From a bacterium (GTDB lineage: Bacteria; Krumholzibacteriota; Krumholzibacteriia; LZORAL124-64-63), in the NCBI GenBank assembly GCA_031441465.1, contig JANOEP010000029.1:1-62959 (forward strand): a DNA stretch of 62,959 nt, read 5' to 3'. The notes beneath the pieces are model-generated. The model saw nothing but the letters and a program-made list of their open reading frames with translations, searched no databases and was not told where the DNA came from. Below are positions 38,955 to 57,254 of this stretch, one piece after another. Position 1 is the first letter of the stretch, and each line of letters starts with the position of its first letter. The translations under genes were made by a program, and so were the position numbers.

Positions 38955-39803
38955 TCAGGCGTAATCGCGCAGCAGCACGCGGCCGGCCGACTGGCGCATC
39001 TTGCGCAGGGCCTTCTCCTTGATCTGGCGGATGCGCTCGCGGGTGAGTCCCAGCCGGTTCCCGATCACTTCGAGCGTGAGCGCCTCGTCGTCGTCCAGCC
39101 CGTAGTAGAGCACGATGACCATCGCTTCGCGGTCGGTGAGCGCAGACAGACTGCGGCGGACATCCTCGCGCATGACGCGTTCCAGGAGCCGGGCGTCGGC
39201 CAGGGGCTGGTCGTCGTCGGTGAGCGTCTCGCTCAGGGGACGGTCCCCCGCCTCGACATCGTCCAGGGCGACTTCGGCGCCACCGAGTTCCAGGCTGCGG
39301 CGCACGTCATCGGTGCCCAGCCCGAGAACCGTGCCGATCTGTTCGGCCGTGGGATTTTCCTGACCACCGCTTTGCAGTTGCGTGCGGGCCCGGTTGACCT
39401 TCAGCAGCTGCGCCGTCTGGTTCTGGGGCAGGCGCACCAGACGCGAGTGATCGAGCAGCGCCTGCAGGATCGACTGGCGGATCCACCACACGGCGTAGGA
39501 AATGAATTTGAAGCCCCGGGTCTCGTCGAAGCGGTCGGCCGCCTTGAGCAGCCCGAGGTTGCCCTCGTTGATCAGGTCCGCGAGCGTCAGCCCCTGGTGG
39601 ACGTAGCGCTTGGCCACCGTCACCACGAACCGCAGGTTCGCGTTGACCAGGCTCTGGAGGGCGTCGCGGTCGCCGGCGCGGCTACGCCGGGCGAAGTCCG
39701 CCTCCTGCTCACGCGTCAGCAGGGCGTAGCGGTTGATCTCCCGGAAGTAGACTTCCAGGCTTTTTTCGTGCATGGGGGGCACGATCGATGGTCTGTTCGC
39801 CAT
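38955..39803 (-). CDS. RNA polymerase sigma-70 factor (RpoD/RpoS family, no region 1.1)
   Basis: ANLRFVVTVAKRY, DLINEGNLGL, GFKFISYAVWWIRQSI, LTRERIRQIKEKAL. Confidence 0.95.
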   Translation of the reverse strand: MANRPSIVPPMHEKSLEVYFREINRYALLTREQEADFARRSRAGDRDALQSLVNANLRFVVTVAKRYVHQGLTLADLINEGNLGLLKAADRFDETRGFKFISYAVWWIRQSILQALLDHSRLVRLPQNQTAQLLKVNRARTQLQSGGQENPTAEQIGTVLGLGTDDVRRSLELGGAEVALDDVEAGDRPLSETLTDDDQPLADARLLERVMREDVRRSLSALTDREAMVIVLYYGLDDDEALTLEVIGNRLGLTRERIRQIKEKALRKMRQSAGRVLLRDYA

Positions 39804-41324: not shown

Positions 41325-41469
41325 GCGGGCTCCCGGGCTGCAAGGACACCGCGGGCCGCTGGTGCGGACCGCAGAACGCGGCAGAGCCGGTCGCTTCGTG
41401 GGGGGAGCGGCTGGGTGGGACCAGGGTCGGCCGGTCGCCGAGCGACCAGCCTGTTGCAGGGATGAACCG

Positions 41470-41499
41470 ATCTTAGAGCAACAGGATCGGCGCGGTCAA
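41470..41499 (-). promoter_or_regulatory. sigma70-type promoter upstream of the degP leader
   Basis: TTGACC-18 nt-TAAGAT. Confidence 0.55.
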
Positions 41500-41515
41500 G
41501 CGTTTTCGCAACTGC

Positions 41516-41917
41516 TCAATATGGTCGGGGATCCTCGTCGTCGTCGTACCGGCCGGCGGGAGCGTCACGGCGGTCCTCGCGGTTCCGGCGCCTCTCGGCC
41601 TCCAGGGCTCCCGGACGCCGGCTTTCGCTGGCGCGGATCGCCTCGATCTCCAGCCGCTTCGCCTCCAGATCGGCCTCGAGCTTCTGAATCCGGCCGACGA
41701 GGTCCAGCACCGCGGGGTCCGCACCGAAGTCGGTCCGGCCCTGCAGGATGCCCTCGTGGACGAGTTTGCCGATCTCGCTGTAGTGGCGCTCGATTTCGCG
41801 GCCGATCCCGAAGATGTCGTAGCGGCGCGACCCGACCCGCGCCATCTCCCCGGTCTTCTCGGCCGCGGTATCGTACCACGCGCCCATGCTCTTGCGGAGG
41901 TCGTCCCAGAGGCCCAT
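41516..41917 (-). CDS. Small coiled-coil hypothetical protein
   Basis: GGGAG RBS before ATG; helical, heptad-like charged sequence. Confidence 0.75.
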   Translation of the reverse strand: MGLWDDLRKSMGAWYDTAAEKTGEMARVGSRRYDIFGIGREIERHYSEIGKLVHEGILQGRTDFGADPAVLDLVGRIQKLEADLEAKRLEIEAIRASESRRPGALEAERRRNREDRRDAPAGRYDDDEDPRPY

Positions 41918-41986
41918 CGCGTTCTCCCGTGCTGCGGTCGAAAACACCTTGCCGCGACCGCGCCATTCATATACTAACATCCGACC

Positions 41987-42769
41987 ATGTTCAAGAACGA
42001 CCAGCACACGATCCTGATCGCCGGCGACACGCACTTCAAACTGCGGCCCGACCCCGCCGAGGTCCGCCGCCGCGACCTCTTCCTATCCTTCCTCGAGGTG
42101 GCCCGGGGCGCCGACGAACTGGTCCTGCTCGGCGACGTCTTCGATTTCTGGTTCGACTACCCCCACTTCCGACTGCGGGGCTACGAAGAGCTGCTCGCCG
42201 CCCTCGACGGCGTGCGCGACGCCGGCGTCCGGCTGCACTTCGTGGGCGGCAATCACGACATCTGGGCCGCACGCTACCTGCACGAGCGTTACGGCACCTC
42301 GCTGCAGGGGGATCCGTTCACCATGAACGCGGACGGCCTCCGCATCCGGTTCGTCCACGGCGACGGCCTACTCGCCCGCGACTGGATCTACTCGTCGTTC
42401 CGCCGCCTCGTGCGGCAACGCGGCGGCGTCCTCTTCGCGAAATCCCTCCACCCGGAGTTGCTCTACGCCTTCTCGCAGTGGCTGAGCCACACCAGCCGCC
42501 AGGCCTCGCGCGACGAACGCCACCTGATCGAGAAGCGCGCGCGCCGGCATCTGGCCAGCGCGCGCGGCGATTGGGACCTGCTGCTGATCGGGCACGTCCA
42601 CCACGCCTTCCGCATCGCACAGGGTGGACGGGAAATGGCGGCGCTGGGCAGCTGGTTCGCGGGTGAGGCGAGCTACGCGATCGTGCGGGGGGGCCGGTTC
42701 GAGCTGCGCGACTTCGCCGCCGACCCCCGTCCTCCGGTCGGGAACCCTCAATTCGGGATCACTCAGTAA
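41987..42769 (+). CDS. lpxH: UDP-2,3-diacylglucosamine diphosphatase
   Basis: GDTH, LLGDVFDFWFDY, GGNHD, VHGDG, GHVH, LGSW metallophosphoesterase motifs. Confidence 0.88.
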   Translation: MFKNDQHTILIAGDTHFKLRPDPAEVRRRDLFLSFLEVARGADELVLLGDVFDFWFDYPHFRLRGYEELLAALDGVRDAGVRLHFVGGNHDIWAARYLHERYGTSLQGDPFTMNADGLRIRFVHGDGLLARDWIYSSFRRLVRQRGGVLFAKSLHPELLYAFSQWLSHTSRQASRDERHLIEKRARRHLASARGDWDLLLIGHVHHAFRIAQGGREMAALGSWFAGEASYAIVRGGRFELRDFAADPRPPVGNPQFGITQ

Positions 42770-43707
42770 CCGGAACCACCCAACGCCAGTTCCAAGGCGA
42801 AACGGTGCCAGTCGCCCAGGTCGTTGGTGGCCTGCTCGAAGGCGTACCCCAGGGTCAAGGGGCCGCGGGTGAAGCCGGCACCCCAGGTGTAGCCCTGGGA
42901 CTCGTAGTTGATCCGCGTGCCCAGGCGCAGGGCCAGGGCCGGCACCAGCCGGTATTCGCCGCCGACGTGCGCCTTCTCGTTGCCGTCGTTCGGGAACAGG
43001 ACGTCCGCGGCCAGCGTCAGCTTGCCCGAGAAGAAGTCCTGCTGGGGATCGTAGGCCAAGCCCAGCCTGCCGGCCTGCGGCAGGGCGAAGGGCTCCTCGT
43101 TGAGGTTGAGGTCGGGCCCGACGTTGGTGAGCGAAGCGCCGAACCACAAGCCGGGGACCTCGGCGCGATGCGCGATGAACAGGTCGTAGGCCAGCCCCGT
43201 GTCGCCGTACACGTCGATCTCGGTGTGCAGGAGCTTGACGCCGACGCCAACCGCGAAGACCTCGCCGATCATCCGCGCGTAATTGACGCCGAGCGCCACC
43301 TCGTACGGGCGGAACGTGCCCAGCGGCACGCCGACGCCGTCCTCCTCGTAGCGTTCGATCTCGTCGGCATAGAGGCCGGAGAAGATGAAGCCCAGCGTAC
43401 CGTACGGCGTGCGGTGGGCGACGACGGCCGTCTCCTTGTCGAACAGCCCCCACAGCCGCTGGTGCTGGAGCAGCAGGTCCGTGCCTTCCTGCGTGAAGGC
43501 GAGGCGCGCCGGGTTCCAGTACACGGCCGACGCCCCGTCGGCCGAAGCCACGCCGGCACCGCCCATGGCGGCCTCGCGCGCGCCCACGGGGTTGCGCAGG
43601 GACAGGAAGCCCGAGGTCCCCGGGGTTCCGGCGGCGGCGGCTCCCGCGAGCAGCAGGACGGCGAGGAGCGCGGCGTGCGCGCGGCGGCGCGGCGGAGCAG
43701 ACATCAT
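42763..43707 (-). CDS. PorV/PorQ-family outer-membrane beta-barrel
   Basis: Signal peptide then FLSL..PVGAREAAMGGA.VA.ADGASAVYWNPA; C-terminal LG..HRF. Confidence 0.9.
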   Translation of the reverse strand: MMSAPPRRRAHAALLAVLLLAGAAAAGTPGTSGFLSLRNPVGAREAAMGGAGVASADGASAVYWNPARLAFTQEGTDLLLQHQRLWGLFDKETAVVAHRTPYGTLGFIFSGLYADEIERYEEDGVGVPLGTFRPYEVALGVNYARMIGEVFAVGVGVKLLHTEIDVYGDTGLAYDLFIAHRAEVPGLWFGASLTNVGPDLNLNEEPFALPQAGRLGLAYDPQQDFFSGKLTLAADVLFPNDGNEKAHVGGEYRLVPALALRLGTRINYESQGYTWGAGFTRGPLTLGYAFEQATNDLGDWHRFALELALGGSGY

Positions 43708-43765
43708 GTCGATCCTTTCCGGCGCGACCGGCGCGCCCAGACCCGCGGACGGCGACCGCGGCGGC

Positions 43766-46700
43766 TCATCGTGAGACGGCCACCGGCACGACGCTCGTTT
43801 CGGAACGGCCGCTTCCCTCGGCGACCAGTCGGCAGACATACAGACCCGAAGCGAGTTGCGGCAGGTCCAGCCGGACCTCCACGGGTTCGCCCGCGCGGGC
43901 GGCGGTGCTGGCCGCGACCGCCACCACCTCCCCCTCCAGATTGTACAGGAAGACCCGGACACCGCAATCCCGCAAGACGTCGGCGCGCACGCGCAGCACC
44001 GTGCCCGTCAGCGGCGACGGGTAGCAGACGTGGCTGCCGGCGACGAACAGGCCCGTGCCCGTCGGACCGGCGGGGGGCGCCGGGAGCCACGACGAGCCGT
44101 CGGCGCTCCCGCCGTACATCGGCCAGACCGGCACGGCATCCGCGGTGCCGTGCAGGCTCCAGACCGCCAGGCGGGACACTGGCTCGCCGTCGAATCCTCC
44201 GTCCACCGCGACGCCCGCGATCCGCTCGAAGCTGCCGGCGGCGACCAGTTCGAGGCCCGGCGCAGCGTCGAGATCCAGCAGCAAGGGCGTGCCGGCTGCC
44301 GCGCCCGCCCCGGCCAGCGGCCAGCCGGGAATCAGGACGCCATCCTGGCCGTACAGGAACATGCGACCGTCGGCGAGTGTGAAGAGGTACTGCCGGGACG
44401 CGCCGACTTCGAATGCCAATGGCTGCGGTTCTGTCCCGGGGGCGGCGGCCACGGCGCCGGTTGCCGGCCGCTGAGGCCAGCCGACGCGGGGCGCACCCGT
44501 GCTGCCTGTACAGGCGAACGCGCCGTCGCGGGTGCCGTGAGCCAAGTCGGGTCCGAAGGGCGTCGCCACCGCCGCCCCCACCGGCCAGAACACGGGAGCC
44601 TGGAAATCCGGCAGGATCATGGCGCCGCCGTCCTTCGTCGCGACCGCCAGCGCGTACTCGCGATCCACAAAACCGACGAAGTCGGCGCCGACTTCGGGTA
44701 TCTGCCAGATCTGCGGCCTGATCGCGGCCGGCTCCGCCGGCAGGACGCGCACGGGATCGAACCCGCCACCGTCATGCCGGATCACCTGTTCCCACCGCTC
44801 GTCGACCTGGTTGTGCACCAGCAGGACGAGACTCGCCGCGTCGAGGTGCAGCACCGGCGGCGCCACCACGCGGCACTGTTCCTGCGGCAGATCGACGACG
44901 GCGCCACCCGGCCAGACCCGCAGCCGGCTGCGGGCGCCGTCCTCCCAGGTTTCGACAACGACGACATCGGCGGTTCCCACGACGGGTGGCCAATCGCAAC
45001 CCGTCAACGCCAGCGCGAGCCCGTAGCTGACGGGATCCGCATCGCCATCGACGGCTTCGGTGCCGTCCTCGCCGTTGAAGACGAACAGGCCGGTGGGCGC
45101 CGAGAGCACGATCTCCGGCCGGCCGTCGTCATCGACGTCCGCCACCAGCAGCGGTCCCGTCCAGGCGGCCGTCGTGCCGTCGGCGTTGCGTCCGACGGCG
45201 AGCAGGCCGGGCTCGAGGGTGGTCTCGTGGAAGTCCGACAGGTCGCTGCGGAAGGCCAGGACGCGGCCGCCGTCGGCGGCGGTCACGATCTCGAGCGTGC
45301 CGTCGGCGGGCCAGTCCAGATCGGCGGCGATCAGGTGCATGCCGCGCAGGTCGCGGCCCGGCAACTCGCGTACCGCCGCCGGTTCGGCGTCCCCGAGGGA
45401 CTCGCGCGAACAGCTGAACTCCAGCCAGGGCGCGTAGACGATCACGGCCGCTGTGTCGCCGGGCGCCACGTAGGCGGAATCCAGGACGACGTGGCTGAAG
45501 GCGTCCAGCACGATCCCGGTCGGCTGGCCGGCCGCGGTGACGGTCGCCGGCCGTGTGTCCGGCCCGAACCTCGCCGCACCCTCGCCGCGGAAGCTGTCGT
45601 GATCGCCGCCCAGGAACCAGGCGCTCGGCGTGCCGGAATCGAGATCCTGGATGCCGTCGGCCTCCTCGAGGTCCACGGACTTGTGGGCGGGGTCCGCGTT
45701 GTAGAGGTTGCCTTCGGCGCCCGCCGAGGCGCGAATCACCGACTCGTCGATGTGCCAGACGTAGAGCCCGCTGCCGGCGCCCTTGACGCCTGGTGCACGG
45801 GCCTGGTTCTCGCTCATGAAGAAATCGAACTCGCCGCCGTCGAGCCACTCCCGCTGGTCGGTCGCGGGATCGAACCAGCTCGTGGGCGTGCCGTCGAGGG
45901 AATCGGAATCGGCGTCGTAGAAATCGGGGACGCCGTTGCCATTCAGGTCGCCCGGAAACGAGAATTTACGGTTGCCGTCGGGATCCTGCCGGCGGTATTC
46001 GACCAGCCAATACTCCTGGGGCGCGATCTCCACGCGCGCCAGGGTTGAATCCGCGGCCGGATGCTCGGCGGGATACAGCCGCAGGACGCCGCTCGCGTCG
46101 GGGTCCACGCTGTACGGCTCGAGCCAGCCCATGAGCATCTTGTTGAACGCGCAGGGAAGCGCCGGGATGTAGCCCGCGGCCGTGAACAGCCCGTAACCCA
46201 TCAAGCAGAACTCGCCGACGCCTTGGCTGTCCGGTCGGCCGGCGGGCGTGAAGTCGCTCAGCGAGAGCATGCCCAGGCGTAATCCCACTTCGAAGCAGTA
46301 GACGCCGAGCGAGCCGAAATAGCCCAGGAAGCTCCCGATCGGATCCTGGAACTCGTTTTCCGGCAGGATGAGCACGTGGTCGATCAGGGCGAAGCCCCCG
46401 CCGGGCAGCTGATCGTCCGTGAGCAACCCCGGCTCCTGCAGGAGGCCCTCTTCGACGGCGAGCGCGAAGTCCTCGGGTCCCAGATAGCCGCTGTAGATCT
46501 GCTCGGGCGAATCGCCCAGGATGTCGGTCTCCTCGCCGGCGCCGGCGTGGACGATCACCACCGTGTCGTAGCGCGAGAAGTCGACGTCGGCATCCAGCGC
46601 CGCGACGGCGTCGCGCGCCAGCAACACCTTCTGCTCCCCCTCGTCGGGGTGGTTCCCGTACCAGGCCATGGGGGACGCCAGGTTGGCCACCTCGGGGTGG

Positions 46701-47221
46701 ACCCGGTAGCGGAACTCGAAGCGCTCGCCGCTGGCCACACGGAAATAGGACCGCACGTCGGCGAACTGATGAGCGAAATAAAGCGAGTCGTGGGCCGTGT
46801 AGTAGGGATCGCTCTGTCGTGGCAGCGGAAAGCCCTCCAGTTCATGCCCGTAGAAGAGGCTGTCGGCGAAGTCGCACATCAGGATCGCAGCCACCAAGCT
46901 GTCCGGGGCCGCCCGGCCGGCCAGGCGTGCGGCCTGCAGGGCCGGCGAGCCGTCGCGGGCCAGCCGCGCCACCTTGTCGCCGAGAAGTCGATCCACACCG
47001 GACCGGCCGGCCATCCGCGCCGCCGCGGCCTCGCGTGACGGAACGGCGGTGGGCAGGGGTCCTGCATCTGCTGCTCGAGCCGGCGACACCGACAAGCTGC
47101 CGGCCCCGACAAAGACGTGCCATGCCAGGCAACCGCACAGCAACGCCCGGGACACACGGCCCGAGGGGCCGGCGGTGGCGAGGCGGTCGGCGGCCTGGTT
47201 CATGTCGTTCGGCTTTCGCAT
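43766..47221 (-). CDS. Secreted M6 (immune inhibitor A)-like metallopeptidase-fold protein with FG-GAP repeats and T9SS-type CTD; zinc motif degenerate
   Basis: IVHAGAGEE, VGEFCLMGYG, KMLMGW, EYWLVEYR, SGLYVWHIDE, VDLEEADG; ADLD/ADVDDDG repeats; YPSP..LASGLY. Start set downstream of the promoter (47221 or 47203). Confidence 0.88.
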   Translation of the reverse strand: MRKPNDMNQAADRLATAGPSGRVSRALLCGCLAWHVFVGAGSLSVSPARAADAGPLPTAVPSREAAAARMAGRSGVDRLLGDKVARLARDGSPALQAARLAGRAAPDSLVAAILMCDFADSLFYGHELEGFPLPRQSDPYYTAHDSLYFAHQFADVRSYFRVASGERFEFRYRVHPEVANLASPMAWYGNHPDEGEQKVLLARDAVAALDADVDFSRYDTVVIVHAGAGEETDILGDSPEQIYSGYLGPEDFALAVEEGLLQEPGLLTDDQLPGGGFALIDHVLILPENEFQDPIGSFLGYFGSLGVYCFEVGLRLGMLSLSDFTPAGRPDSQGVGEFCLMGYGLFTAAGYIPALPCAFNKMLMGWLEPYSVDPDASGVLRLYPAEHPAADSTLARVEIAPQEYWLVEYRRQDPDGNRKFSFPGDLNGNGVPDFYDADSDSLDGTPTSWFDPATDQREWLDGGEFDFFMSENQARAPGVKGAGSGLYVWHIDESVIRASAGAEGNLYNADPAHKSVDLEEADGIQDLDSGTPSAWFLGGDHDSFRGEGAARFGPDTRPATVTAAGQPTGIVLDAFSHVVLDSAYVAPGDTAAVIVYAPWLEFSCSRESLGDAEPAAVRELPGRDLRGMHLIAADLDWPADGTLEIVTAADGGRVLAFRSDLSDFHETTLEPGLLAVGRNADGTTAAWTGPLLVADVDDDGRPEIVLSAPTGLFVFNGEDGTEAVDGDADPVSYGLALALTGCDWPPVVGTADVVVVETWEDGARSRLRVWPGGAVVDLPQEQCRVVAPPVLHLDAASLVLLVHNQVDERWEQVIRHDGGGFDPVRVLPAEPAAIRPQIWQIPEVGADFVGFVDREYALAVATKDGGAMILPDFQAPVFWPVGAAVATPFGPDLAHGTRDGAFACTGSTGAPRVGWPQRPATGAVAAAPGTEPQPLAFEVGASRQYLFTLADGRMFLYGQDGVLIPGWPLAGAGAAAGTPLLLDLDAAPGLELVAAGSFERIAGVAVDGGFDGEPVSRLAVWSLHGTADAVPVWPMYGGSADGSSWLPAPPAGPTGTGLFVAGSHVCYPSPLTGTVLRVRADVLRDCGVRVFLYNLEGEVVAVAASTAARAGEPVEVRLDLPQLASGLYVCRLVAEGSGRSETSVVPVAVSR

Positions 47222-47263
47222 GCGGTTTCGCTCCGGGAGCCGGCATCGCCGGCGGAAACGACG

Positions 47264-47292
47264 AGTATAGGTGCGCGTCCCACGATCGTCAA
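47264..47292 (-). promoter_or_regulatory. sigma70-type promoter for the M6-like/PorV pair
   Basis: TTGACG-17 nt-TATACT. Confidence 0.7.
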
Positions 47293-47296
47293 CGAA

Positions 47297-47324
47297 CGGC
47301 CCCGCCGAAAACACGGCGGGGCCG
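47297..47324 (-). terminator. Terminator-like hairpin
   Basis: Perfect 11-bp stem CGGCCCCGCCG-6 nt-CGGCGGGGCCG; weak U tract (UUCGUU). Confidence 0.6.
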
Positions 47325-47510
47325 GGGATCGAACGCCGCCACCCCTGATTGGCATCGTCTTCACCCCTGCCCCGCCGTTCGACGTCGGTGATCATCGGCT
47401 GACCGGCTCGGCTTCCCGTTCCCCGACAGGTGCCAACCTCTTCAAGGATCAGGCCCTCGCCGGTCCGCCAACACGATGGGGGGATCAGATCACCTCCGAC
47501 ATCATGGGGC
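47325..47510 (-). ncRNA. Candidate structured RNA element in the 3' region of the DUF4384 gene
   Basis: Nested pairings GCCCC/GGGGC, GAUGUCGG/CCGACGUC, GUGAUC/GAUCAC, GACCGGC/GCCGGUC around an unpaired UCCCCCCAUCGU. Confidence 0.4.
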
Positions 47511-47511
47511 G

Positions 47512-49293
47512 TCAGCGCCCCTTGCTCCGAGACTTGCTCGATTGCCCGGACTGGCCCGACGATCCGCTGCGCGAGCCGTTGTCGCCGCCGCTCTGCTGCG
47601 TGCCAGACCGAGTGTCTTGGCTTTCGCGAGTGGAACGCGACTGCACGCTGCCCGAGTCGCGGGAACCCTCATTGCTCTTGCCCGCCGGGCGCTCCTTGAC
47701 CGCCGGTGGCGGCTCGGACCGGCCCCCGCTCGATCGCGGCGTGACGGCGGAGGCCGGCCTATCGGGTGCCTTGTGCTCCTCGCTGCGGCCGCCGCTCCAC
47801 AGGCGCGGTCCCTTCGTGCGGGGCTCGACCGGGCGAACCGTTCCCGGGCCGGAGTCGCCCTGATCGCGACGCGGCACCGGCCGGACCGCCCGGTCGCCGC
47901 TTTCGCCACCCTTGCCGCGCTCCGGAGGCGCCGGCCTGACTTCACCGGCCGTGCGGCCGCTCCGCCCGGCCTGGGGCCGCACTTGGGTGCCGGTCGTGCC
48001 GCCCGTCGACGCTCCTGGCCTGGTCACAGCTTCCCCGCGGCTGCCCGCCGTGACGCCGGAACGGCCCGGCACACGGATCCCGGGGGTGCGATCTTCACGA
48101 GTCGGAGGTGCGAAGGTCTGGGACGAGCGCTGCACCTGCGGGACGTCGCGGAATCGAGTCCGCTCCTGGTCCCGGTCGCCATCGCGCACCGCCGCCGAGC
48201 GGGAGGCCATCCGGTCGCTCACCTCGCGGGCGGGCCGCGGATTCTTCACCAGACCGGCAGGGTGATGCTGGCTGTCCTCGCCCTCGCCCCGCTTCATGCG
48301 CTGGTCCTTGCCGAGCGGCCGGTATCGGCGCTCGCCGTCCTTGTACCGCGTCCAGACGTCGCCCCGCCCGCGGGGGGAATAGTTCCAGACGTAGCAGTCG
48401 TGATCCCAGCCCCAGCCATGGTGCTCGGGCCACGAATACCAGGGACGGTACCAGTAGTTGATCCAGGGATTCGAGGTCCAGGGATCGACGTAGTAGTAGA
48501 CGGGGTAGTAGTAGGCCGGGTAGTAGCCGTAACGAACGTACCAGTCGTTGTCCCAGCGGTAATCGTGGTGGATGGTGACCGCGCAGGTGTCCCGGTACGG
48601 CTCGTAGCTCTGCCCGCCGTCGTGGCACTGGTTGCAGAGGTAACGCGGGTGGTCGACGCGCCGGTGGACGTACCAGCTGATGTAGTTCGTGGCGACATAG
48701 TCCTCGGGGTTCTCCAGGCCCGTGACGGCGAAATTCACCTCGTTCATCGCCAGGAAGGGGTCGCCGGCGACGTAGTACGCGAAGTCCCGCGCGCGCTCCG
48801 ACTCGTGATGGAAGTCGACTTCGAGATCGCGCAGATCGAACGGGTAGGCGGAGACGACAGCCTCGACGTACTCGACGCCTTCGTCGTCGGCCGCGAGGAT
48901 CCGCGGCGAACCCGGACCCGGCAGGTTGTAGGTATGGGTGCCGAACACGAAACCGTCGTCCAGTCGGCTCCGCGGCCAGAGAATCGAAACCAGGCCGTCG
49001 GTGTCGATACGGTAGACGACGACGTACGCGTCCTGGTTCGTCTCGAAGTGGACGCGCACCGACTCGCCGCGCTTGTAGACCTCGTCCTGCTGACGGTCGT
49101 GCCAGACGTTCACTCGCAGCGGTTGCTGGTCGTACCCCTGCCAGCCGTCGGCGACCGCCGGTTGCTGAGCGCGGGCCGTGGCGAAGCCGAGTGCGAGCGC
49201 CAACGCCCCGAGCAGCCAGCCGACCGCCAAACGATGGGCGCGGTCCTGTCGCGCCGCCGTCCGCACGCCCGTGTTCTTTGTCTTGTAAGTCAT
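47512..49293 (-). CDS. DUF4384-domain secreted protein with CxxCH motif, Tyr/Trp-rich segment and disordered basic tail
   Basis: Hydrophobic signal; VY.RGE.VRVHF..NQDAYVVVYRIDTDG.V.ILWP (DUF4384-like); CNQCH; R/G/S-rich tail. Confidence 0.8.
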   Translation of the reverse strand: MTYKTKNTGVRTAARQDRAHRLAVGWLLGALALALGFATARAQQPAVADGWQGYDQQPLRVNVWHDRQQDEVYKRGESVRVHFETNQDAYVVVYRIDTDGLVSILWPRSRLDDGFVFGTHTYNLPGPGSPRILAADDEGVEYVEAVVSAYPFDLRDLEVDFHHESERARDFAYYVAGDPFLAMNEVNFAVTGLENPEDYVATNYISWYVHRRVDHPRYLCNQCHDGGQSYEPYRDTCAVTIHHDYRWDNDWYVRYGYYPAYYYPVYYYVDPWTSNPWINYWYRPWYSWPEHHGWGWDHDCYVWNYSPRGRGDVWTRYKDGERRYRPLGKDQRMKRGEGEDSQHHPAGLVKNPRPAREVSDRMASRSAAVRDGDRDQERTRFRDVPQVQRSSQTFAPPTREDRTPGIRVPGRSGVTAGSRGEAVTRPGASTGGTTGTQVRPQAGRSGRTAGEVRPAPPERGKGGESGDRAVRPVPRRDQGDSGPGTVRPVEPRTKGPRLWSGGRSEEHKAPDRPASAVTPRSSGGRSEPPPAVKERPAGKSNEGSRDSGSVQSRSTRESQDTRSGTQQSGGDNGSRSGSSGQSGQSSKSRSKGR

Positions 49294-49321
49294 GACCGGA
49301 CCTCCTTTCGGGTCAGCGCCA

Positions 49322-50230
49322 CTAGAAACGGATCAGTTCGCTGCGGGGCGCACCGGTGACACGCTCGTCCGCGACGACCTTCAGTTCCGGATTTCCCTCG
49401 TCGAACTGGTAAGCCCAGTCGATCTCGACCATCCCCGCCGAGATCGCGTAGACGTAGAACTTCGCGTAATGGACGTCGTTCTCGGGATCCACGACGATCG
49501 CCACGGCGTAGGTATGGCCCTCGATCAATTCCGCGACGCCGATGGCGGAGTACCCGGACGTCGGGGCCTCGTCGACCGCGGCGAAGGCAACGGTCCCGAG
49601 ATCCTGCAGGTAGACGACGCCGAACCTCGCCGAGTAGACGAAGGGCACGCCCCCGACGAAGGCCAGGTAGACGTCGGCGGTCGGGTCGTCCCATTCCATC
49701 CGCCCGTTGTCCAAACGGCTGAAATCGAAGCCGCTGCGCTCGGGGTGATCCCCGTAACGGTCATAGAGCAGGAGTTCGTAGCCTTCGGGCCGCGGCGTGT
49801 CATCGACCGTCTCCCAACTCAAGGAGCTTTCGTTCCCGCTCGTGTCGTAGGAAAGCACCGCATAGTAATAGGTCTGCCCGTCCACGAGGTCTTCGTCGTC
49901 GAACCAGTGGAGTAGGCTGACCTCGTCGAAATTCTCGTCCCAGGCGACATCGCCCAACCAGTGGTAGCGGCCGTCCAGGGGGTCGTTCCCGTCATGCCGG
50001 TAGACGGCATAGCCGGCGAGATCGGACTGGTCCAGGTCGTTCCAGTAGACGGAGACGACACCCTCGCCGGTGACCGTGAAAACTCCGGTCGGAACCGCCG
50101 GGGCCTGAGTGTCGACCGGGTCGTCGTCGCAGCCCGGCAGAGGAACCAGGAGCGCCAGGACGAGAACTGTCGCGATGGCCTGCATCGCCACGTTCAAGTG
50201 ATGTCGATTCTCGGTAAGTATCCGGTTCAT
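49322..50230 (-). CDS. Lipoprotein with a fibronectin type III-like domain
   Basis: GGAGG RBS; LLVPLPGC lipobox-like; PAVPTG....GEG.VSVYW..DLAGYAVYR..YYYAV.SYD..GNES. Confidence 0.85.
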   Translation of the reverse strand: MNRILTENRHHLNVAMQAIATVLVLALLVPLPGCDDDPVDTQAPAVPTGVFTVTGEGVVSVYWNDLDQSDLAGYAVYRHDGNDPLDGRYHWLGDVAWDENFDEVSLLHWFDDEDLVDGQTYYYAVLSYDTSGNESSLSWETVDDTPRPEGYELLLYDRYGDHPERSGFDFSRLDNGRMEWDDPTADVYLAFVGGVPFVYSARFGVVYLQDLGTVAFAAVDEAPTSGYSAIGVAELIEGHTYAVAIVVDPENDVHYAKFYVYAISAGMVEIDWAYQFDEGNPELKVVADERVTGAPRSELIRF

Positions 50231-50280
50231 GGCCCCACCTCCCTCGAGCCGGCGTCACGCCGACCCGCAGGCTCTCCAAG

Positions 50281-50295
50281 GCAGGAGGCATGCCA
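50281..50295 (-). promoter_or_regulatory. sigma54 (-24/-12) promoter for the lipoprotein-DUF4384 operon
   Basis: TGGCATGCCTCCTGC (GG-N10-GC) ~50 nt upstream of ATG 50230, with an AT-rich tract just upstream. Confidence 0.7.
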
Positions 50296-50411
50296 CGCTA
50301 CTTCCCGACGGCCGATTCCGGCGTTTTGAAATGTATTTTACAATTAGGCATGCAGTTACAGAGACGAAAGAAGAATCTGGGCGAGGATGGGTTGCTGAGC
50401 GGGAGCGGCTT

Positions 50412-51640
50412 TAGTGTCCCCCGCAAAGTCCATAGCATCCCCAAAAGGAGACGGGTTCTGGCTGTGAAATTGTCCCTGGCGCGGTCGTTGCCGCGCCAGG
50501 GACATGACCACCAACACCCCCGGCTGGCAACCGCCCCACTGCCCCAACCCGGACTGCCAGTTCCACCAACAGGTTACCCCCGCCTGGCGCTTCAAACGCA
50601 AGGGCTACTTCTCCCGCCGCTGCACACCCACCCGTATCCAGCGGTTCACATGCCTCTACTGCGGACGCAACTTCAGCACACAGACCTTCTCCACCTCCTA
50701 CTGGCAGAAACGCCCCGAGTTGATGTCCCGGCTGTTCATGCTGCTGGTCGGCTCGATGTGCAACCGACAAGCGGCCAGAGCCGATCGGGTTGCCCCGGCA
50801 ACCATCCAGCACCAGGCCTCCCGCCTCGGACGTCATTGCCTGCTGTTCCACGCCAAGCAGATACAGCAGCTCGGCCCGACCCCCGAGGTCGTCGTCGACG
50901 GCTTCGAGACCTTCGAGTGGAGCCAGTACTTCCCCTTCCACCACAACCTGGCCGTCGACCCTGAGACCGGCTACTTCCTCTACCACACCGACAGCCCGCT
51001 GCGCCGCAAGGGGCGCATGACCGACCACCAGAAGCAGCGCCGAGCCGAACTGGAAGCGACCCTGGGCCGCCCGGACCCGAAGGCCGTCCGCAAGGGCATG
51101 GCGGAGCTGTTCGAGGTGGTGACCCAGGGTGCCGGCAAGGTGGTGGTCCGTAGCGATGATCACCCGGCGTACCCGCGAGCCATGGCACACCTGGAATGTG
51201 AGGTCGAGCACCGGATCACCTCGGGGAAGGAGCACCGCGACCAGCACAACTCGCTGTGGGAGGTGAACCTGCTGATCCGCCACGGCACAGCGGCGCACAG
51301 GCGCGAGACGATCGCCTAGGCGAAGCGGCGGCAGGCGTCGGCGGAGAAGCTGGCGGTGCTGCAGGTGTGGCGCAACAACATCAAGCGGCGGTGGGAGAAC
51401 GGGCATTCGGTGACGCCGGCGATGCTGCGGGGGGCGACAGGCCGGGTGTTGACGGTGCGGGACGTGTTGTGCGAGCGGCTGTTCCGCACGCGGATCGCAC
51501 TGCCGCCGAGCTGGAATCGGTACTACGAGCGCAGCGTGGAGACGACGGCGCTGGCGGTGAACCGGCGGCACCGGCTGAAGTACGCGTTCTGAGGAGACGG
51601 CAGAGGCGAGGCCGCCGGGCCGCGCACCCGTCAGGGACAA
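50412..51640 (+). mobile_element. IS1-family-like insertion sequence, ends approximate
   Basis: Contains the transposase gene; only short inverted ends visible (TGTCCC at ~50415, GGGACA at ~51634); no clear target-site duplication. Confidence 0.6.
50504..51592 (+). pseudogene. IS1-like DDE transposase with a premature TAG at 51317-51319
   Basis: Zinc finger CPNPDC..RFTCLYC; VVVDGFETF, VRSDD..AY, RRETIA; the same frame resumes after TAG (AKRRQ...LKYAF). Confidence 0.8.
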
Positions 51641-51649
51641 TCATGTGGC

Positions 51650-51975
51650 CAGAACCAAAGAGAAAAGAGCCAGCGGTCCTGGAGTAGACCGAGGATCCCG
51701 AGTCTCGCCTCTGCGGGATCTGCTGGCTCTTTCTCTGGTCTTTCGGAGTGGGCCGGGTGATCGGAGGGGACCTGAACCACGTTTTTCATCACCCGTTGTC
51801 CGGCTGGTTCGGAACCCCACATTCCTTGCCGACCACCACGGGCCTAGTCGTTGAAAAACACTCCCAGCTCGCCGGTAGGCGCTGAAAGCTGTGGATCCAG
51901 TTCCCCTTCCGAAGTTTCGGCTTCACTGACGGGTTGGTCCAGGTTCATCCCTGCAACTGGTCCCACCCACGTTCA
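51650..51975 (-). ncRNA. Candidate sigma54-dependent structured sRNA (~320 nt)
   Basis: Starts at the predicted +1 of the sigma54 promoter. Stems GUUUUUCA/UGAAAAAC and CCCGU/ACGGG (51780-51860). Ends in the long hairpin AGAGCCAGC..GCUGGCUCU plus UUUCUCUUU. No convincing ORF. Confidence 0.6.
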
Positions 51976-51986
51976 GTTCGATGATT

Positions 51987-52001
51987 GCAGTCGACATGCC
52001 A
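51987..52001 (-). promoter_or_regulatory. sigma54 (-24/-12) promoter
   Basis: TGGCATGTCGACTGC followed by A, close to the TGGCACG-N4-TTGCW consensus. Confidence 0.75.
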
Positions 52002-52019
52002 GATGGCCGCAGGCACTTC

Positions 52020-52180
52020 CTTGTGATTAACTTGCTGAATTTTAATAGGTTATAATTATTTATGAATCCGGCTCCTCATCCGGAGGCCTCACGGGAGGCA
52101 AGTCCGTTGCCCACTCATCGCGTCGAATTCCTATTCCGTTGTAAAATAAGTTGTTACGATGGCAATAACTTTAATAGCGA
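52020..52180. promoter_or_regulatory. AT-rich IHF-like and enhancer (UAS)-like zone
   Basis: TAACTTGCTGAAT (IHF-like); imperfect palindromes GTAA-N9-TTAC and GTTGTTAC-N4-GCAATAAC. Confidence 0.45.
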
Positions 52181-52233
52181 CGATGCTGGAAAGAACATCC
52201 ATTGACACACCGGCAGCATCGAGCCGCCGGACA

Positions 52234-55200
52234 TCAGTCGACTTCGGGATCGTAGATCCGAATTTTCTTCAAGAGATTGGGATAGCTGATGCCGAGCAAG
52301 CGTGAGGCCGCCGCCTTGTTGCCGCCGGTCGCCACCAGCGCGCGCGCGATCTCACGGGCTTCGACGGCCCCGAGCACCTCGCGCAGGGTCGACGGGTTGC
52401 GGGCCGCCACGGTATCGCCGTTGGCGGGGACGATCTCCGCCGGGAGGTGGTCCGGGCGCAGCATCGGTTCGCCGTGGGCCAGGACGATGGCGCGGTTGAT
52501 GGCCTTGACCAGTTCCCGCACGTTTCCGGGCCAGGCATGACACGACAGGGCGTCCATGAACGCCGCCGTGTAGCCGGGCGGCGTGATGCCGCGCGCCGCG
52601 GCGTAGCGGGCGATGAAGTGCGGGACGAGCAGGCCGATGTCCTCGCGACGTTCGCGCAGCGGCGGCACCGAGAGCGGAAAATCCAGCAGCCGGTAGTAAA
52701 GATCTTCGAGGAACTCGCCCCGCGCGACCTTGCCCTTCAGGTCGCTCTTGGTCGCGCAGATGATGCGCACGTCGATGACCTGGTCGACGTTGGCGCCGAC
52801 GGGCCGGATGGTCATCGAATCCAGGAACAGCAGGATCTTGCCCTGCATCCCGAGCGGGAGCTTGCCGATCTCGTCGAGGAACACCGTGCCGCCGGCGGCT
52901 TCGGCCAGGAGGCCTTTCTTGTCGCCGTAGGCGCCCGTGAAACTGCCCCTGACGTGGCCGAACAACTCGCTCTCGAGAAGCGCCTCGGGAATGGCGGCGC
53001 AATTGATGGCGAGGTACTTCCTGCCGGCACGACCGCTGAGGTCGTGGATCGCCCGCGCGAACAGACCCTTGCCGGTGCCGGTCTCGCCTTGAAGCAGCAC
53101 GAGCAGGTCGCTGGCGGCGACCTTGCGAACCACATCCAGGAGTCGGAGCATGTCCGGGTGACCGGTGATGATGCCGGACAGAGCACTCTCCCGCTCCGGG
53201 GTCGCCAACGCGGCGGCAGCGGGTCGGTCGCGTTCAAGTTCGGCCACGTTCATCGCGAGGAAGCCTGACGCCGTGGAGAGGAACTCCAACGCCGGCCTGA
53301 AGACAGCCGTGCCGGGATTGCCCGGGCAACCCGAGAGGTAGAGCAGGCCGTAGAGCTTGTCGGGCAGGGCGATCGGCACGAACAAACTGATGTCCATGGC
53401 GCAGGGCAGCCCGGCGAGGATCTTCGCGACGGCTGTGCCTGGCTCGGGCCGCGAAATCAGGCGGGGTGACGGCGAGCCGCCGTAGAGCTTGTCGGTGAAC
53501 CAGGTGGTGAGTTTCCGGGCGACCGCCGCCGGCACGCCGCGGCTGGTCACGACCTGATCTGAGACCGGGTAGTCGGCCAACGGCGTCAGAGCAGCGAACC
53601 CTTCCTTGGCGCCCGTACGAGCGAGGGCCGCTTCCAGCAGTCCCCGCAGGGCGGCATGGACCGCCTCGGTACGATCACCGGCGCCGCGGATCGCGAGCCG
53701 TTGCGGATCCAAGAGAGGCTGTTCGCCCACCAAGGCTCGTTCCAGCCGGGTACGCAGTGCCGTGGCTTGCCCCGCCAGTTCGGGCGCGTCGAGCGCCGCC
53801 AGGACCCGGTCCAGCTCACCCAGGGCGATCAGGACCTCGTCGTGTTCACCGAGCAGCAACAGGACCTCGGCGAAACCCTGCAACAAGCGGCCGTAGAGGT
53901 GCTCGTCCTCGCGCACCGCGTCGCACTCGACCGCCTCGCCGAGCGAGCGGCGCAGGGCGACCAGTTCCTCACGGGGAAAGACACCGGCGCCTTCCCCGAG
54001 GTGGGCCAGGACGGCGCGCGCGGCTTGGACCGGCAACTGCTGGGTTCGGAACGTGCGTACTGCGAGCCTGAAGTGCTCGGAGCCGCCCTTCCCGTCGCCG
54101 AGGCGTGTCAGCGCCTGGCCGAGAACCTGATGGCAGAAGCCGATTTCGAACAGCTCACCGCAGGTGAGGCAAATCTGCAGCGCCGCCTCGGCGCTCGCGA
54201 GGGCTTCGCGCCAGTTCTGCTGACCGGCCCGGGCCTCGGCGATCCGGCGCAGCAACTCGCCCTCGAGATCGGTGGACTTGCCGATCCCGCGAGCCTTCGC
54301 CAGCCCCAGCTCGTAATTGTAGAGCGCGCGGTCCCACTCGCCGCGGTGTGCCTGGATGTCGCCCATGTATTCGTCGGCGATCGCGGCCTCGCGCGAGTAC
54401 CCGGCCTGTTCGGCGAGGTGCTGGCCCTCCATCACCAGTTCCTCGGCCCGCAACAGGCGGCCCTCGAGCAGATCGAGCTGGCCGAGCGCGAGGCAGGCCT
54501 TGGTCCGACGATCGAGGTCGCCGAGGCTCGTCGCCAGGCGCAGGCACTTCTCGAAGCTGGCGCGGGCCTCGCCGCGCCGTTCGGACTTGCGCAGGACGAT
54601 GCCTTCGTTCAGGTGGAGGCGCGCCATCAGATGGGTGGCGCCGTGCGCCGCGGCCAGTTCGAGGGACCGGTGCTGGAAGTCGAGGGCGCGGTGCCAGCGG
54701 CAGGCGTTCTTCTGCAGTAGAGCCAAGTTGTTGTAGAGGATGGCCATGCCGAGGTCGTCGCCGACCCGGCGGAAGGTCGCCAGCGCGTCGGTATAGAACT
54801 CCTCCGCCTTGTCCAGGCGGCCGAGTCGATGGTGGCAAACCCCCATCGTCACCTGGAGGTTGGCGACTTCGGTGTGATTGTCGGTGACGGCCAGGACGGC
54901 GAAGGCCCGCTTGCAAAGCAGCAGCGCATCCGCGTAGGCGCCCCGTTGCACACGGAGGCTTGCTTCGCGGCCCAGCAAGGGGGCGGCGAGCAGGCGTCTT
55001 GCCGAATCGGGCAACCCGACCGCATCCTGCACCTGCGACTGCGCCCGGTTCAGGAGTTCCTGAGCCAGGGTGAGGTCGCCCAGATTCAGGGCCGCGTCGA
55101 CGGTCTTGCGCTGGAGGGCGACGGCGTGCTCGAGATCGAGACCGTCGAGCGCGTGGCCGTCGAGGATGCGCTGATAGTATTCGAGGGCTGAAGAGTAGGC

Positions 55201-55323
55201 ACTGGCTTCGAAGTGGAGATCGCCGATCTCTTCCAAACGCACGAAATCGCCCCGTACCGGACTCCGGTGGGTGCCTGACTCGTGGCGGCGTTCCTCGCGC
55301 CGATGTCTGGAATCACGATCCAT
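52234..55323 (-). CDS. sigma54 enhancer-binding protein with a large N-terminal TPR region, GAF-like segment, AAA+ domain and Fis-type HTH
   Basis: Multiple TPRs (MGVCHHRLGRLDKAEEFY, NNLALL); GETGTGKG, INCAAIPE.LLESELFGH.RGSFTGA, FLDEIG, WPGNVREL, GNKAAASRLLGISY; no receiver domain. Confidence 0.95.
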   Translation of the reverse strand: MDRDSRHRREERRHESGTHRSPVRGDFVRLEEIGDLHFEASAYSSALEYYQRILDGHALDGLDLEHAVALQRKTVDAALNLGDLTLAQELLNRAQSQVQDAVGLPDSARRLLAAPLLGREASLRVQRGAYADALLLCKRAFAVLAVTDNHTEVANLQVTMGVCHHRLGRLDKAEEFYTDALATFRRVGDDLGMAILYNNLALLQKNACRWHRALDFQHRSLELAAAHGATHLMARLHLNEGIVLRKSERRGEARASFEKCLRLATSLGDLDRRTKACLALGQLDLLEGRLLRAEELVMEGQHLAEQAGYSREAAIADEYMGDIQAHRGEWDRALYNYELGLAKARGIGKSTDLEGELLRRIAEARAGQQNWREALASAEAALQICLTCGELFEIGFCHQVLGQALTRLGDGKGGSEHFRLAVRTFRTQQLPVQAARAVLAHLGEGAGVFPREELVALRRSLGEAVECDAVREDEHLYGRLLQGFAEVLLLLGEHDEVLIALGELDRVLAALDAPELAGQATALRTRLERALVGEQPLLDPQRLAIRGAGDRTEAVHAALRGLLEAALARTGAKEGFAALTPLADYPVSDQVVTSRGVPAAVARKLTTWFTDKLYGGSPSPRLISRPEPGTAVAKILAGLPCAMDISLFVPIALPDKLYGLLYLSGCPGNPGTAVFRPALEFLSTASGFLAMNVAELERDRPAAAALATPERESALSGIITGHPDMLRLLDVVRKVAASDLLVLLQGETGTGKGLFARAIHDLSGRAGRKYLAINCAAIPEALLESELFGHVRGSFTGAYGDKKGLLAEAAGGTVFLDEIGKLPLGMQGKILLFLDSMTIRPVGANVDQVIDVRIICATKSDLKGKVARGEFLEDLYYRLLDFPLSVPPLRERREDIGLLVPHFIARYAAARGITPPGYTAAFMDALSCHAWPGNVRELVKAINRAIVLAHGEPMLRPDHLPAEIVPANGDTVAARNPSTLREVLGAVEAREIARALVATGGNKAAASRLLGISYPNLLKKIRIYDPEVD

Positions 55324-55438
55324 CGAATGAGTCCCCTGGCGAGAAAGTGGGCTATTCGAACTGGACTCCCCTCACCCCTTCACTGCACACGCCTGCGTGG
55401 TGCGGCGCCGGTCGCTCTCCAGGCGATCGGCGTCGGTT

Positions 55439-55744
55439 CTACTGGACGACGGTCGCGAACACCGCCAACAACCAAGAGGCCAATGCGGCCGGCGACAGCA
55501 CCGATCCGGGCGGCGTGACGATCGGCGACCCGGTGAGGACGCTGTTGCCCCGATTCCCCGTGATGGCGTCGTCGGGATCGCCATACTGGTGGACCAGGTC
55601 GTTCGCAGGTGGCGTGGTGGGTGCTTCCAACACGACGACGGTCCCGGAAGTCGACACCATCGTCCCGGACTGAGATGTCGCCTGGGCCGACAAGGCCGAG
55701 ACGAGGATCAGCAACAACACCACCGAGTGCATGGCCCTTTTCAT
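55439..55744 (-). CDS. 101-aa secreted peptide/propeptide
   Basis: GGAGAG RBS; Sec signal MKRAMHSVVLLLILVSALSAQA; acidic core YGDPDDAITG; hydrophobic C-terminus LASWLLAVF; own promoter. Confidence 0.75.
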   Translation of the reverse strand: MKRAMHSVVLLLILVSALSAQATSQSGTMVSTSGTVVVLEAPTTPPANDLVHQYGDPDDAITGNRGNSVLTGSPIVTPPGSVLSPAALASWLLAVFATVVQ

Positions 55745-55862
55745 GGTCTCTCCACTTCACTGTTGTCCGGCAACGAACGCTACCGGGCAGACCGGAGACT
55801 CGAATTCGCTGTGCGTCAGGGCCGGCGCCAACCGGCGTCCAGGCCCAAACCTTGACTACAGT

Positions 55863-57254
<1,392 letters not shown>

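Follow-up and report, generated by a model that had tools for sequence, protein, structure and literature searches.

A conserved sigma54 locus with a structured RNA predicted to pair with the htrA/degP leader in an uncultured bacterial lineage

A conserved 17-kb gene cluster in the contig JANOEP010000029.1 (62,959 nucleotides (nt), the whole of which is called the window here) encodes a structured RNA of about 320 nt that follows a sigma54 promoter and whose 5' end is complementary to the leader of an htrA/degP gene in the same cluster. The locus is likely to be a conserved envelope-related regulatory module of an uncultured diderm lineage of the Fibrobacteres-Chlorobi-Bacteroidetes (FCB) type, and this judgment applies jointly to the anatomy of the locus, to synthesis of the RNA by sigma54 RNA polymerase, and to its pairing with the htrA/degP mRNA. 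All positions are those of the window, and the genes of the locus are on the minus strand unless stated otherwise. The region is approximately 70% G+C, and the genome that was searched is a 3.49-Mb draft with a completeness of 96.8%. In every family locus that is long enough, the gene order is rlmN, a receiver-type activator gene, a small open reading frame (ORF), an activator gene with tetratricopeptide repeats (TPR), the RNA, four envelope genes, an lpxH-like gene, a 172-aa ORF, degP, and a sigma factor gene. A first-pass annotation of the window, made from its sequence alone, had proposed a circuit in which a secreted peptide acts through the TPR activator and a sigma54-dependent small RNA (sRNA) on the degP leader. 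The sequence elements that it listed are all present at, or within a few bases of, its coordinates, and promoter, RNA, activator, small ORF, and degP are kept together across genera.

The RNA gene is located at 51657-51977. Its promoter, P1 (52001-51986, TGGCATgtcgaCTGCA, TGGCAT-N5-CTGCA), has a predicted start near 51975, and a second sigma54 promoter, P2 (50295-50280, TGGCATgcctcCTGCC), precedes the envelope operon. Both had been called in the first-pass annotation and were found on the minus strand with the consensus spacing of the -24 GG and -12 GC elements (TGGCAC-N5-TTGCW). An equivalent of P1 is present in 21 of 21 family loci in the form (T/C)GG(C/T)A(C/T)-N5-NTGC, with GC at -12 in 20 of them and GA in one. 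The genome encodes rpoN (Sigma54_DBD, 214.5 bits), and the RNA is presumably transcribed by sigma54 RNA polymerase under one or both of the neighboring activators. It is composed of a 5' hairpin, a central domain, and a 3' terminator domain. The pairing region (51942-51969) lies in the 5' hairpin and includes site A, the 5' arm (TGGGTGGGACCAG, 51969-51957), and site B, the loop (GTTGCAGGGATGAACC, 51957-51942). The central domain (51780-51878) carries an invariant GGUGGGGU loop. The 3' domain (51657-51736) was folded with RNAalifold as a long stem that encloses a hairpin with a conserved GGCGAGA loop and is followed by a U-rich tail; this terminator was not listed by a simple terminator scan with a loop limit of 3-8. 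The GGCGAGA loop is invariant across the family.

The stretch from promoter to terminator is 81-87% identical in five of five same-genus genomes, and the six sequences do not differ in the first ~35 transcribed bases. An nhmmer profile built from eight sequences recovered the RNA in 21 of 21 loci, which represent 19 genera, each time on the strand of the activator gene and 250-400 nt downstream of it; nineteen matches have E<=7e-8 and two are weak (E 0.009 and 0.027). RNAalifold found 89 pairs in an alignment of eight RNA sequences, 22 of them compensatory, and in an alignment of 19 sequences 26 of 39 pairs were compensatory. In the central domain, 89.7% of cells are paired, and sliding of the partners lowers this to 38-52%. 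Both sides vary in 14 of its 18 pairs, and none of 500 shuffles reached any of these measures. A covariance model of this domain with 98 positions, R1, matched exactly once in 39 of 43 additional family genomes and exactly once in nine of ten from a second family; seven other families of the class, sampled with 97 genomes, gave no match at E<=0.001. In four families beyond the reach of R1, the loci hold a sigma54 promoter and the GGUGGGGU or GGCGAGA motifs at the same place. The RNA is single copy in the genome. Rfam 15 returned no match on 51657-51977 at E<=1 and two unrelated weak matches elsewhere in 40000-57000. The first-pass annotation had described the region as poor in ORFs. This holds for the RNA, which has no conserved ORF and whose open frames start at differing places between genera; it does not hold for the stretch from the RNA to the second sigma54 promoter, which contains an IS1-like insertion (50454-51656). 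The RNA is a real and new structured RNA family. The records of the same-genus metagenome-assembled genomes (loci L055-L060) are labeled inconsistently as 'bacterium', Candidatus Latescibacterota, Fibrobacter sp., and Gemmatimonas sp.

The link between the RNA and degP is a repeat formed by GGGTGGGACCAG and TTGCAGGGATGAACC, which are contiguous at 51968-51942 (minus strand) and split by 29 nt at 41413-41468 (plus strand). Since degP is on the minus strand, the repeat in its 5' leader is antisense to the RNA. The complementarity claimed in the first-pass annotation is thus real, and it is interrupted, falling into two blocks of 16 and 13 nt, with the leader 10 kb away from the RNA gene. Matches to a 15-mer with up to two mismatches were expected 0.08 times in the window and seen twice, and one of 100 shuffles reached two. 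Throughout the 3.49-Mb genome, there are no further exact copies of the repeat, the degP leader is the only long complement, and other 11-13-mers occur at about the rate of chance. The 5' end of the leader (41412-41468, minus strand) begins with site B' (GGTTCATCCCTGCAAC, 41468-41453), which is followed by a leader hairpin and then by site A' (CTGGTCCCACCCA, 41424-41412). This geometry is fixed: in 17 of 18 loci, B' starts at -2 to +8 relative to the predicted transcription start and A' lies at +42 to +59, and the spacer between them folds as a hairpin in most of the 17 leaders that were folded.

For quantitative tests, one representative per genus was used (n=14), and four extra same-genus rows were dropped. 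The two-block score of each RNA with its own leader summed to 261, compared with 193 +/- 9.4 (maximum 239) when leaders were permuted, and none of 100,000 permutations reached 261. The own leader ranked first or tied first in 10 of 14 representatives, and the degP leader was the top site on both strands of the ~20-kb locus in 9 of 14. A better match within a genome than between genomes is predicted by co-evolution and is not predicted by independent drift. RNA and leader change in step between genera, and examples of such pairs (RNA versus degP leader) are GTTGTAGGGAAC versus GTTCCCTACAAC, CTAACAGGGAT versus ATCCCTGTTAG, GGTGAAGGGGTG versus CACCCCTTCACC, and GAAGAGG versus CCTCTT; owing to kinship, the independent events in this test are fewer than the genera. 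Cofolding of the RNA (first 60 nt) with the leader (first 88 nt) gave a net gain of -26.9 kcal/mol over the separate folds in the window (z -6.4), and none of 100 dinucleotide-shuffled leaders was as good; the same result (0 of 100) was obtained for 9 of the 14 representatives. In the cofold of the window, the leader pairs with both blocks, and a three-way junction is predicted for the complex. As a measure, RNAduplex energies (50 nt against leaders of 272 nt) had been tried, and these were dominated by the GC-rich background, in which own leaders were not distinct; they were replaced by two-block matching and cofolding.

The target gene (39870-41324) encodes a serine protease of the HtrA/DegP family with a Trypsin_2 domain (116 bits) and two PDZ domains, in agreement with the earlier naming of the leader's gene; the NCBIfam Do-family model scored 347 bits, under its cut-off of 416. 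Its sigma70-type promoter is located at 41499-41470 (minus strand, TTGACC-18-TAAGAT). The gene upstream of degP had been thought to end at 41473; its end is at 41516, and the intervening stretch carries this promoter. Of 21 family loci, degP was found in 18, and the other three stop at contig ends; all 18 have a promoter of the form TTGAC(A/C)-N17/18-TAnnnT for the gene. A gene for a sigma70-family sigma factor (38955-39803; regions 1.2, 2, 3, and 4; RpoS/RpoH-like scores) starts 66 nt after degP; it is syntenic in 17 of 21 loci, and contig ends truncate the other four. It is probably part of the degP transcript, because the 66-nt gap, inspected by eye and not folded, has no visible hairpin followed by a T run. 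Control by the RNA may therefore extend to the sigma factor.

A mechanism can be proposed from these elements. A sigma70 promoter would drive the small exported protein and the cytoplasmic TPR-GAF-AAA+-HTH activator. Downstream of the activator gene, P1 would produce the ~320-nt RNA, which ends at its own terminator, and P2 would drive the operon of surface and outer-membrane proteins. The RNA would then act in trans on the sigma70-made htrA/degP mRNA, which probably also carries the sigma factor gene. The loop of site B would meet the first ~15 nt of this mRNA, which are predicted to be single-stranded, and site A would subsequently swap its imperfect own partner for a perfect one about 45 nt further along the leader, so that a three-way junction forms around the leader hairpin. 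The own partner arm of site A has two mismatches and the degP leader offers a perfect partner, which is the layout of a loop-initiated strand exchange. Hfq was not found in the genome at E<=0.001, an absence that in a draft genome is not proof; it fits the long perfect pairing.

We infer that pairing changes the output of HtrA, and of the sigma factor, and we lean slightly toward a positive effect. A duplex at the extreme 5' end of an mRNA is expected to hinder decay that depends on that end. The duplex would shield the degP mRNA from RNase E-type decay, and a Shine-Dalgarno sequence that is held by site A' in some genera would be released as well. A homologue of RNase E/G is present in the genome, and RNase J was not found in it. 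The lean toward activation follows from the expected protection of the 5' end and from minimum free energy folds in which A' pairs with the Shine-Dalgarno region in five genera (L041, L050, L051, L052, and L054). If the effect is positive, the supply of HtrA would rise together with the sigma54-driven envelope operon.

The same pairing might instead act negatively, a possibility that we hold to be tenable and somewhat less probable than activation. Here, the duplex of 16+13 bp would recruit a double-strand-specific RNase or destabilize the mRNA, and HtrA and the sigma factor would fall as the sigma54 operon is turned on, for instance so that freshly exported surface proteins escape proteolysis. 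Long near-perfect duplexes have the length used by double-strand RNases, and the accessibility of the Shine-Dalgarno sequence does not rise in at least 12 of 18 leaders when the sites are blocked. However, pairing at the extreme 5' end is a general feature (17 of 18 loci) and the known cases of this kind, RoxS-yflS and FasX-ska, stabilize the mRNA, and in four to six genera a predicted anti-Shine-Dalgarno segment, which the RNA would release, overlaps with A'.

Related families provide a further view of the pairing. In a sister family (L062, L064, and L065), the central domain of the RNA is kept and the 5' seed is different (GUCGUCCAGU, full form GGTCGTCCAGT(A/G)AGG). In each of the three loci, this seed matches the family's degP leader, the matches being 11, 16, and 13 nt long and their flanks co-varying. 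It pairs in the middle of the leader and not at the 5' end of the degP mRNA. The seed has thus moved between sister families while the target stayed the same. Two families without degP (L061 and L071) have the same kind of promoter and a long leader directly before the sigma factor gene. The leader in L071 carries CCCCACCTTAA opposite the invariant GGUGGGG loop of the RNA (11 nt), and that in L061 has a match of 9 nt in addition to CCCCACC; both are leads.

These families also bear on the idea that the main job of the RNA lies elsewhere, such as protein binding or titration in the manner of CrcZ, with degP pairing being minor or limited to some lineages. About 270 of the 320 nt are outside the pairing region and hold the most conserved and co-varying parts, including the invariant GGUGGGGU and GGCGAGA loops. 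The shift of the seed between families, and the CCCCACC opposite the invariant loop in the sigma factor leaders of families that lack degP, point in the same direction. Against this stand the fixed geometry of degP pairing across ~14 genera and the finding that no candidate protein partner emerged, and the two functions are compatible. We therefore consider it unlikely that the pairing with degP is secondary.

Several observations weigh against the pairing of a sigma54-made RNA with the degP mRNA as the function of the locus. The complementarity is no better than the locus background in 5 of 14 representatives, and for five representatives 5-7 of 100 shuffled leaders fold as well. Blocking of A' and B' clearly raises the predicted accessibility of the Shine-Dalgarno sequence in only 4 of 18 leaders, and in the genus of the window it changes from 0.34 to 0.31. 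Release of the Shine-Dalgarno sequence was consequently rejected as a general mechanism, with pairing by A' in five leaders, a gain in 4 of 18, and some start codons that are uncertain. In a third family, there is no match of at least 8 nt between the first 90 nt of the RNA and the degP leader; there, the 5'-proximal leader hairpin is matched over just 9 and 11 nt by the RNA near position 120 in two of three loci, which is a lead. Starts, ends, and strand of transcripts cannot be read from one aquifer metatranscriptome that held 7% of the sampled words, as its contigs come from relatives and run past the terminator on one side. On the promoter side, an AT-rich IHF-like stretch (52030-52112, minus strand) is a candidate enhancer and includes a partial palindrome, GGCAAcggacTTGCC (52097-52112), about 110 nt upstream of P1. 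The palindrome GGCAA-N-TTGCC is intact in three of six sequences of the genus and was found neither across the family nor at P2, and a family-wide conserved enhancer was not found. The receiver-type activator in the same cluster could equally drive both sigma54 promoters, which could answer to either of the two neighboring activators. Finally, most of the 320 nt are not needed for degP pairing, which hints at a further function.

The TPR-GAF-AAA+-HTH protein (52234-55323, 1029 aa) is a bacterial enhancer-binding protein for sigma54 in which Pfam recognizes TPR_12/TPR_2, Sigma54_activat (199.5 bits), AAA_lid_14, and HTH_8, and no Response_reg domain. The GSFTGA loop and a GETGTGKG Walker A motif can be read in its sequence, and full-length orthologues are present in 35 of 41 genomes. 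The GAF domain is invisible to Pfam even at E<=5. An AlphaFold2 model of residues 552-715 has a mean predicted local distance difference test score (pLDDT) of 83, and a Foldseek search of the PDB with this model returned GAF domains on top, namely DosS/DosT (E 3e-5, probability 1.00, template modeling score 0.52-0.56) followed by the GAF domains of NifA and Nlh1. The modeled segment is accordingly assigned a GAF fold. The architecture given in the first-pass annotation, a TPR/GAF/AAA+/HTH activator lacking a receiver, was recovered by Pfam for the other domains and by the structure model for GAF. The receiver-type (NtrC-like) activator is encoded by the first gene of the conserved cluster (55863-57254; Response_reg, Sigma54_activat, AAA_lid_14, and HTH_8) and is syntenic in 21 of 21 family loci. 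In the whole genome, there are 24 strict matches to the sigma54 consensus and 17 sigma54-activator-like matches; a third strict consensus in the window, TGGCACgtccgCTGCT, is located at 21363 on the minus strand.

The small ORF between the two activator genes (55439-55744, 101 aa) encodes an exported protein with a signal-peptide-like N-terminus, a conserved GDPDDAITGNRGN motif, and a hydrophobic or amphipathic C-terminal helix. It is preceded by a sigma70-type promoter (55888-55860, TTGACA-17-TAAACT, 10 of 12 matches in a promoter scan) that probably drives the activator gene as well, and a TTGAC-type promoter-like pair was seen by eye at the same place in most of 28 loci. A counterpart of the small ORF lies directly upstream of the TPR activator gene in 28 of 28 loci and in five of five further ones, which gives 33 of 33 loci in six families; the count of 28 left out L035, and in four of the five further loci a motif variant, PGDDD-x-PNR, was read by eye. 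All counterparts have a signal peptide, a variable low-complexity stretch, a GD(P/A)(D/G)(D/G)-type motif, and a C-terminal amphipathic helix. The conserved motif is of the GDPDD-x-I-x-GN type, with G55 and D56 invariant and G63 nearly invariant in the alignment. The protein has no Pfam or NCBIfam family. In a protein atlas, its best score (0.86) was to a cluster of 105 aa from Candidatus Eiseniibacteriota, which is a lead only.

The circuit of the first-pass annotation divides into two halves. The output half, a sigma54 activator gene with an adjacent sigma54 sRNA that is antisense to the degP leader, is well supported. The RNA is conserved in about 20 genera together with its promoter and location, co-variation is seen within its structure and between its 5' blocks and the degP leader, and 29 of 29 loci have a P2-type promoter ahead of the first operon gene. 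Sensing of the peptide by the TPRs, the input half, stays conjectural. Complex prediction, which had been suggested as a check, was performed with sensor residues 1-715 and residues 23-101 of the small protein. It gave a score of 0.59 (runs 0.58, 0.59, and 0.62) compared with 0.00 for the best of three controls; at least 34% of contacts were shared between runs, and the pLDDT of the partner was 39-40. Of 157 solved complexes, 116 attain the mark used, as do 2 of 215 mismatched pairs. At scores of 0.60 or below, it is reached by just 18 of the 157 solved complexes and by both passing mismatches, and such a pass is more often wrong than right unless the interaction is likely beforehand. The prediction is weak support, and binding is not established by it.

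In the complete circuit of the first-pass annotation, the exported protein would be processed, a fragment would be re-imported and bind the TPRs of the activator by the logic of RRNPP regulators, and the RNA and the operon would be switched on. The adjacency of small ORF and TPR activator gene in six families, the signal peptide with a short conserved motif amid variable sequence, and the complex prediction agree with this scheme. The product, however, has about 80 residues and a conserved C-terminal amphipathic helix, unlike the short RRNPP pro-peptides, and Pfam gave no RRNPP-type family. Moreover, the output is an AAA+ sigma54 module and not an RRNPP output domain, the GAF domain could take a small-molecule signal, a receiver-type activator is present in the same cluster, and the prediction tool itself rates such a pass as more often wrong than right unless the interaction is likely beforehand. 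We find the scheme improbable as a whole.

An export monitor is improbable to the same degree. In such a system, the activator would bind the small protein in the cytoplasm before export, and its activity would report the state of export or secretion. Partner switches of this kind are known for FlgM-sigma28 and IpgC-MxiE, and we know of no case with a sigma54 activator. The same adjacency and the same complex prediction apply, the partners would meet in the cytoplasm with no need for re-import, and the outputs are envelope proteins and a periplasmic protease. Yet the idea is pure inference, and Sec substrates are normally exported fast. A circuit common to the class, in which the small exported protein is read by the TPR-GAF sensor, either after re-import or before export, the activator fires a dedicated 320-nt RNA, and this RNA seizes the 5' end of the htrA-sigma factor mRNA with its toehold-like hairpin, seems rather unlikely to us. 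If true, one conserved 17-kb cluster would combine sigma54, the sensing of a peptide or of export, and RNA-based regulation of both envelope proteolysis and an alternative sigma factor.

The weakest alternative, that the shared motif is an operator for one DNA-binding protein at the RNA gene and the degP promoter, would account for a reverse-complement copy being the same double-stranded site and for its overlap with the predicted degP start, a typical position for a repressor, and it is nevertheless very unlikely: the sequences shift in step between genera at both places, so that the specificity of the protein would have to drift too, the half-sites adjoin each other at one locus and are separated by 29-45 bp at the other, with a spacer that always folds as a hairpin, and the sister family has a quite different shared sequence. 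A DNA inversion switch or transposon ends as the source of the inverted repeat were rejected, as the flanks show no target duplication, there is no nearby recombinase except that of the insertion sequence, and the arrangement is kept across genera.

With RNA-RNA pairing as the preferred reading, the locus can be compared with known systems. The first-pass annotation had drawn parallels to LuxO-Qrr and PxrR-Pxr, which are apt; the closest system is CbrB-CrcZ. In Pseudomonas, crcZ is just downstream of cbrB. The gene order is the same as here, which makes CbrB-CrcZ the closest architecture. According to PMC6296734, the sigma54 activator CbrB directly activates the regulatory RNA CrcZ, which is several hundred nt long, with the assistance of IHF. 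The system differs in that CbrB is of the receiver type and CrcZ sequesters Crc/Hfq and does not act by base-pairing, whereas no Hfq and no Rfam match were found here.

Sigma54-dependent sRNAs that act by base-pairing under an NtrC-type activator are represented by LuxO-Qrr in Vibrio. PxrR-Pxr of Myxococcus is another such pair. The RNAs of both systems are ~100 nt long, and those of Vibrio depend on Hfq and have several targets; the RNA described here differs in its length of 320 nt, in a genome in which no Hfq was found, in its TPR-GAF sensor in place of a receiver, and in one dominant target within the same cluster. In enterobacteria, the sigma54-dependent sRNA gene of GlrR-GlmY is located beside the genes of its activator and has an envelope output. 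GlmY is a decoy for the RapZ protein and does not pair with an mRNA leader, which distinguishes it from the present RNA.

On the target side, DsrA, RprA, and ArcZ pair in the long rpoS leader and open an inhibitory fold, and in RoxS-yflS and FasX-ska pairing at the extreme 5' end protects the mRNA. The locus resembles both groups, as B' is 5'-terminal in 17 of 18 loci and A' lies over an anti-Shine-Dalgarno segment in some genera, and it resembles the rpoS case in having a sigma factor gene in the same probable transcript. Unlike DsrA, RprA, ArcZ, RoxS, and FasX, its pairing is bipartite around a leader hairpin, its effect is a predicted one, and the lineage and RNA family are unrelated. On the input side, RRNPP receptors (Rap, NprR, PlcR, and PrgX) have HTH or phosphatase outputs and no AAA+ module, and they respond to short pro-peptides. 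A gene for a cytoplasmic TPR protein beside that for a small exported protein (33 of 33 loci) is a shared trait. The activator of the present locus differs in its sigma54 AAA+ and GAF domains and in having only generic TPR families and HTH_8 in Pfam, and the small protein differs in its larger size and conserved C-terminal helix, with weakly predicted binding.

Loci in which a sigma54-dependent regulatory RNA is encoded beside the gene of a sigma54 activator are already known. What is new is the RNA family, the lineage, the combination of a TPR-GAF sensor with an invariably present small exported protein, the use of the htrA leader as a target, and the bipartite 5'-terminal geometry of pairing. 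In the main texts of literature outside subscription journals, no paper was found that describes degP/htrA as the target of a sigma54 sRNA or an sRNA together with a TPR-type activator, and the statement of the first-pass annotation that it knew of no description of the combination agrees with this coverage. An uncultured and poorly known lineage gains a regulatory RNA with a named target from sequence co-variation alone, and the few sigma54-dependent sRNAs would gain a large Hfq-independent member. The tip of the RNA paired to the start of the messenger of a periplasmic quality-control protease would be a new case of RNA-based control of the cell envelope. Its predicted design is unusual, proceeding from loop contact through arm exchange to a three-way junction at the extreme 5' end of an mRNA, and the shift of the seed with a constant target bears on the evolution of sRNA-target pairs. 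Sigma54 control of surface proteins would be tied to HtrA-type quality control and possibly to an alternative sigma factor. The small exported protein and the TPR-GAF activator are a testable candidate for peptide or export sensing outside Firmicutes.

The operon downstream of P2 (42763-50230) was assigned with Pfam and NCBIfam and contains, in order, genes for a lipoprotein (302 aa), a DUF4384 protein (593 aa), an M6-like metalloprotease homologue (1209 aa) with FG-GAP repeats and a weak type IX secretion system tail, and an outer-membrane protein of the PorV/PorQ family (399 aa; NF033709, 132.7 bits compared with a cut-off of 90). It is syntenic in all family loci that are long enough. The IS1-like insertion (50454-51656, plus strand) sits exactly between the terminator of the RNA and the conserved block upstream of P2. 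It has terminal inverted repeats of ~25 nt (GGTTCTGGC...ATTGTCCCTG) and ORFs at 50504-51319 and 51256-51687, and an in-frame TAG interrupts its transposase frame, which is on the plus strand. The match of the transposase to IS1 is weak (22.5 bits compared with a cut-off of 100), the inverted ends are present, and the element is absent from five of five same-genus relatives. A metallophosphoesterase gene of the lpxH type (41987-42769, plus strand), which scored under the family cut-off, has the opposite orientation inside the cluster in all loci that are long enough.

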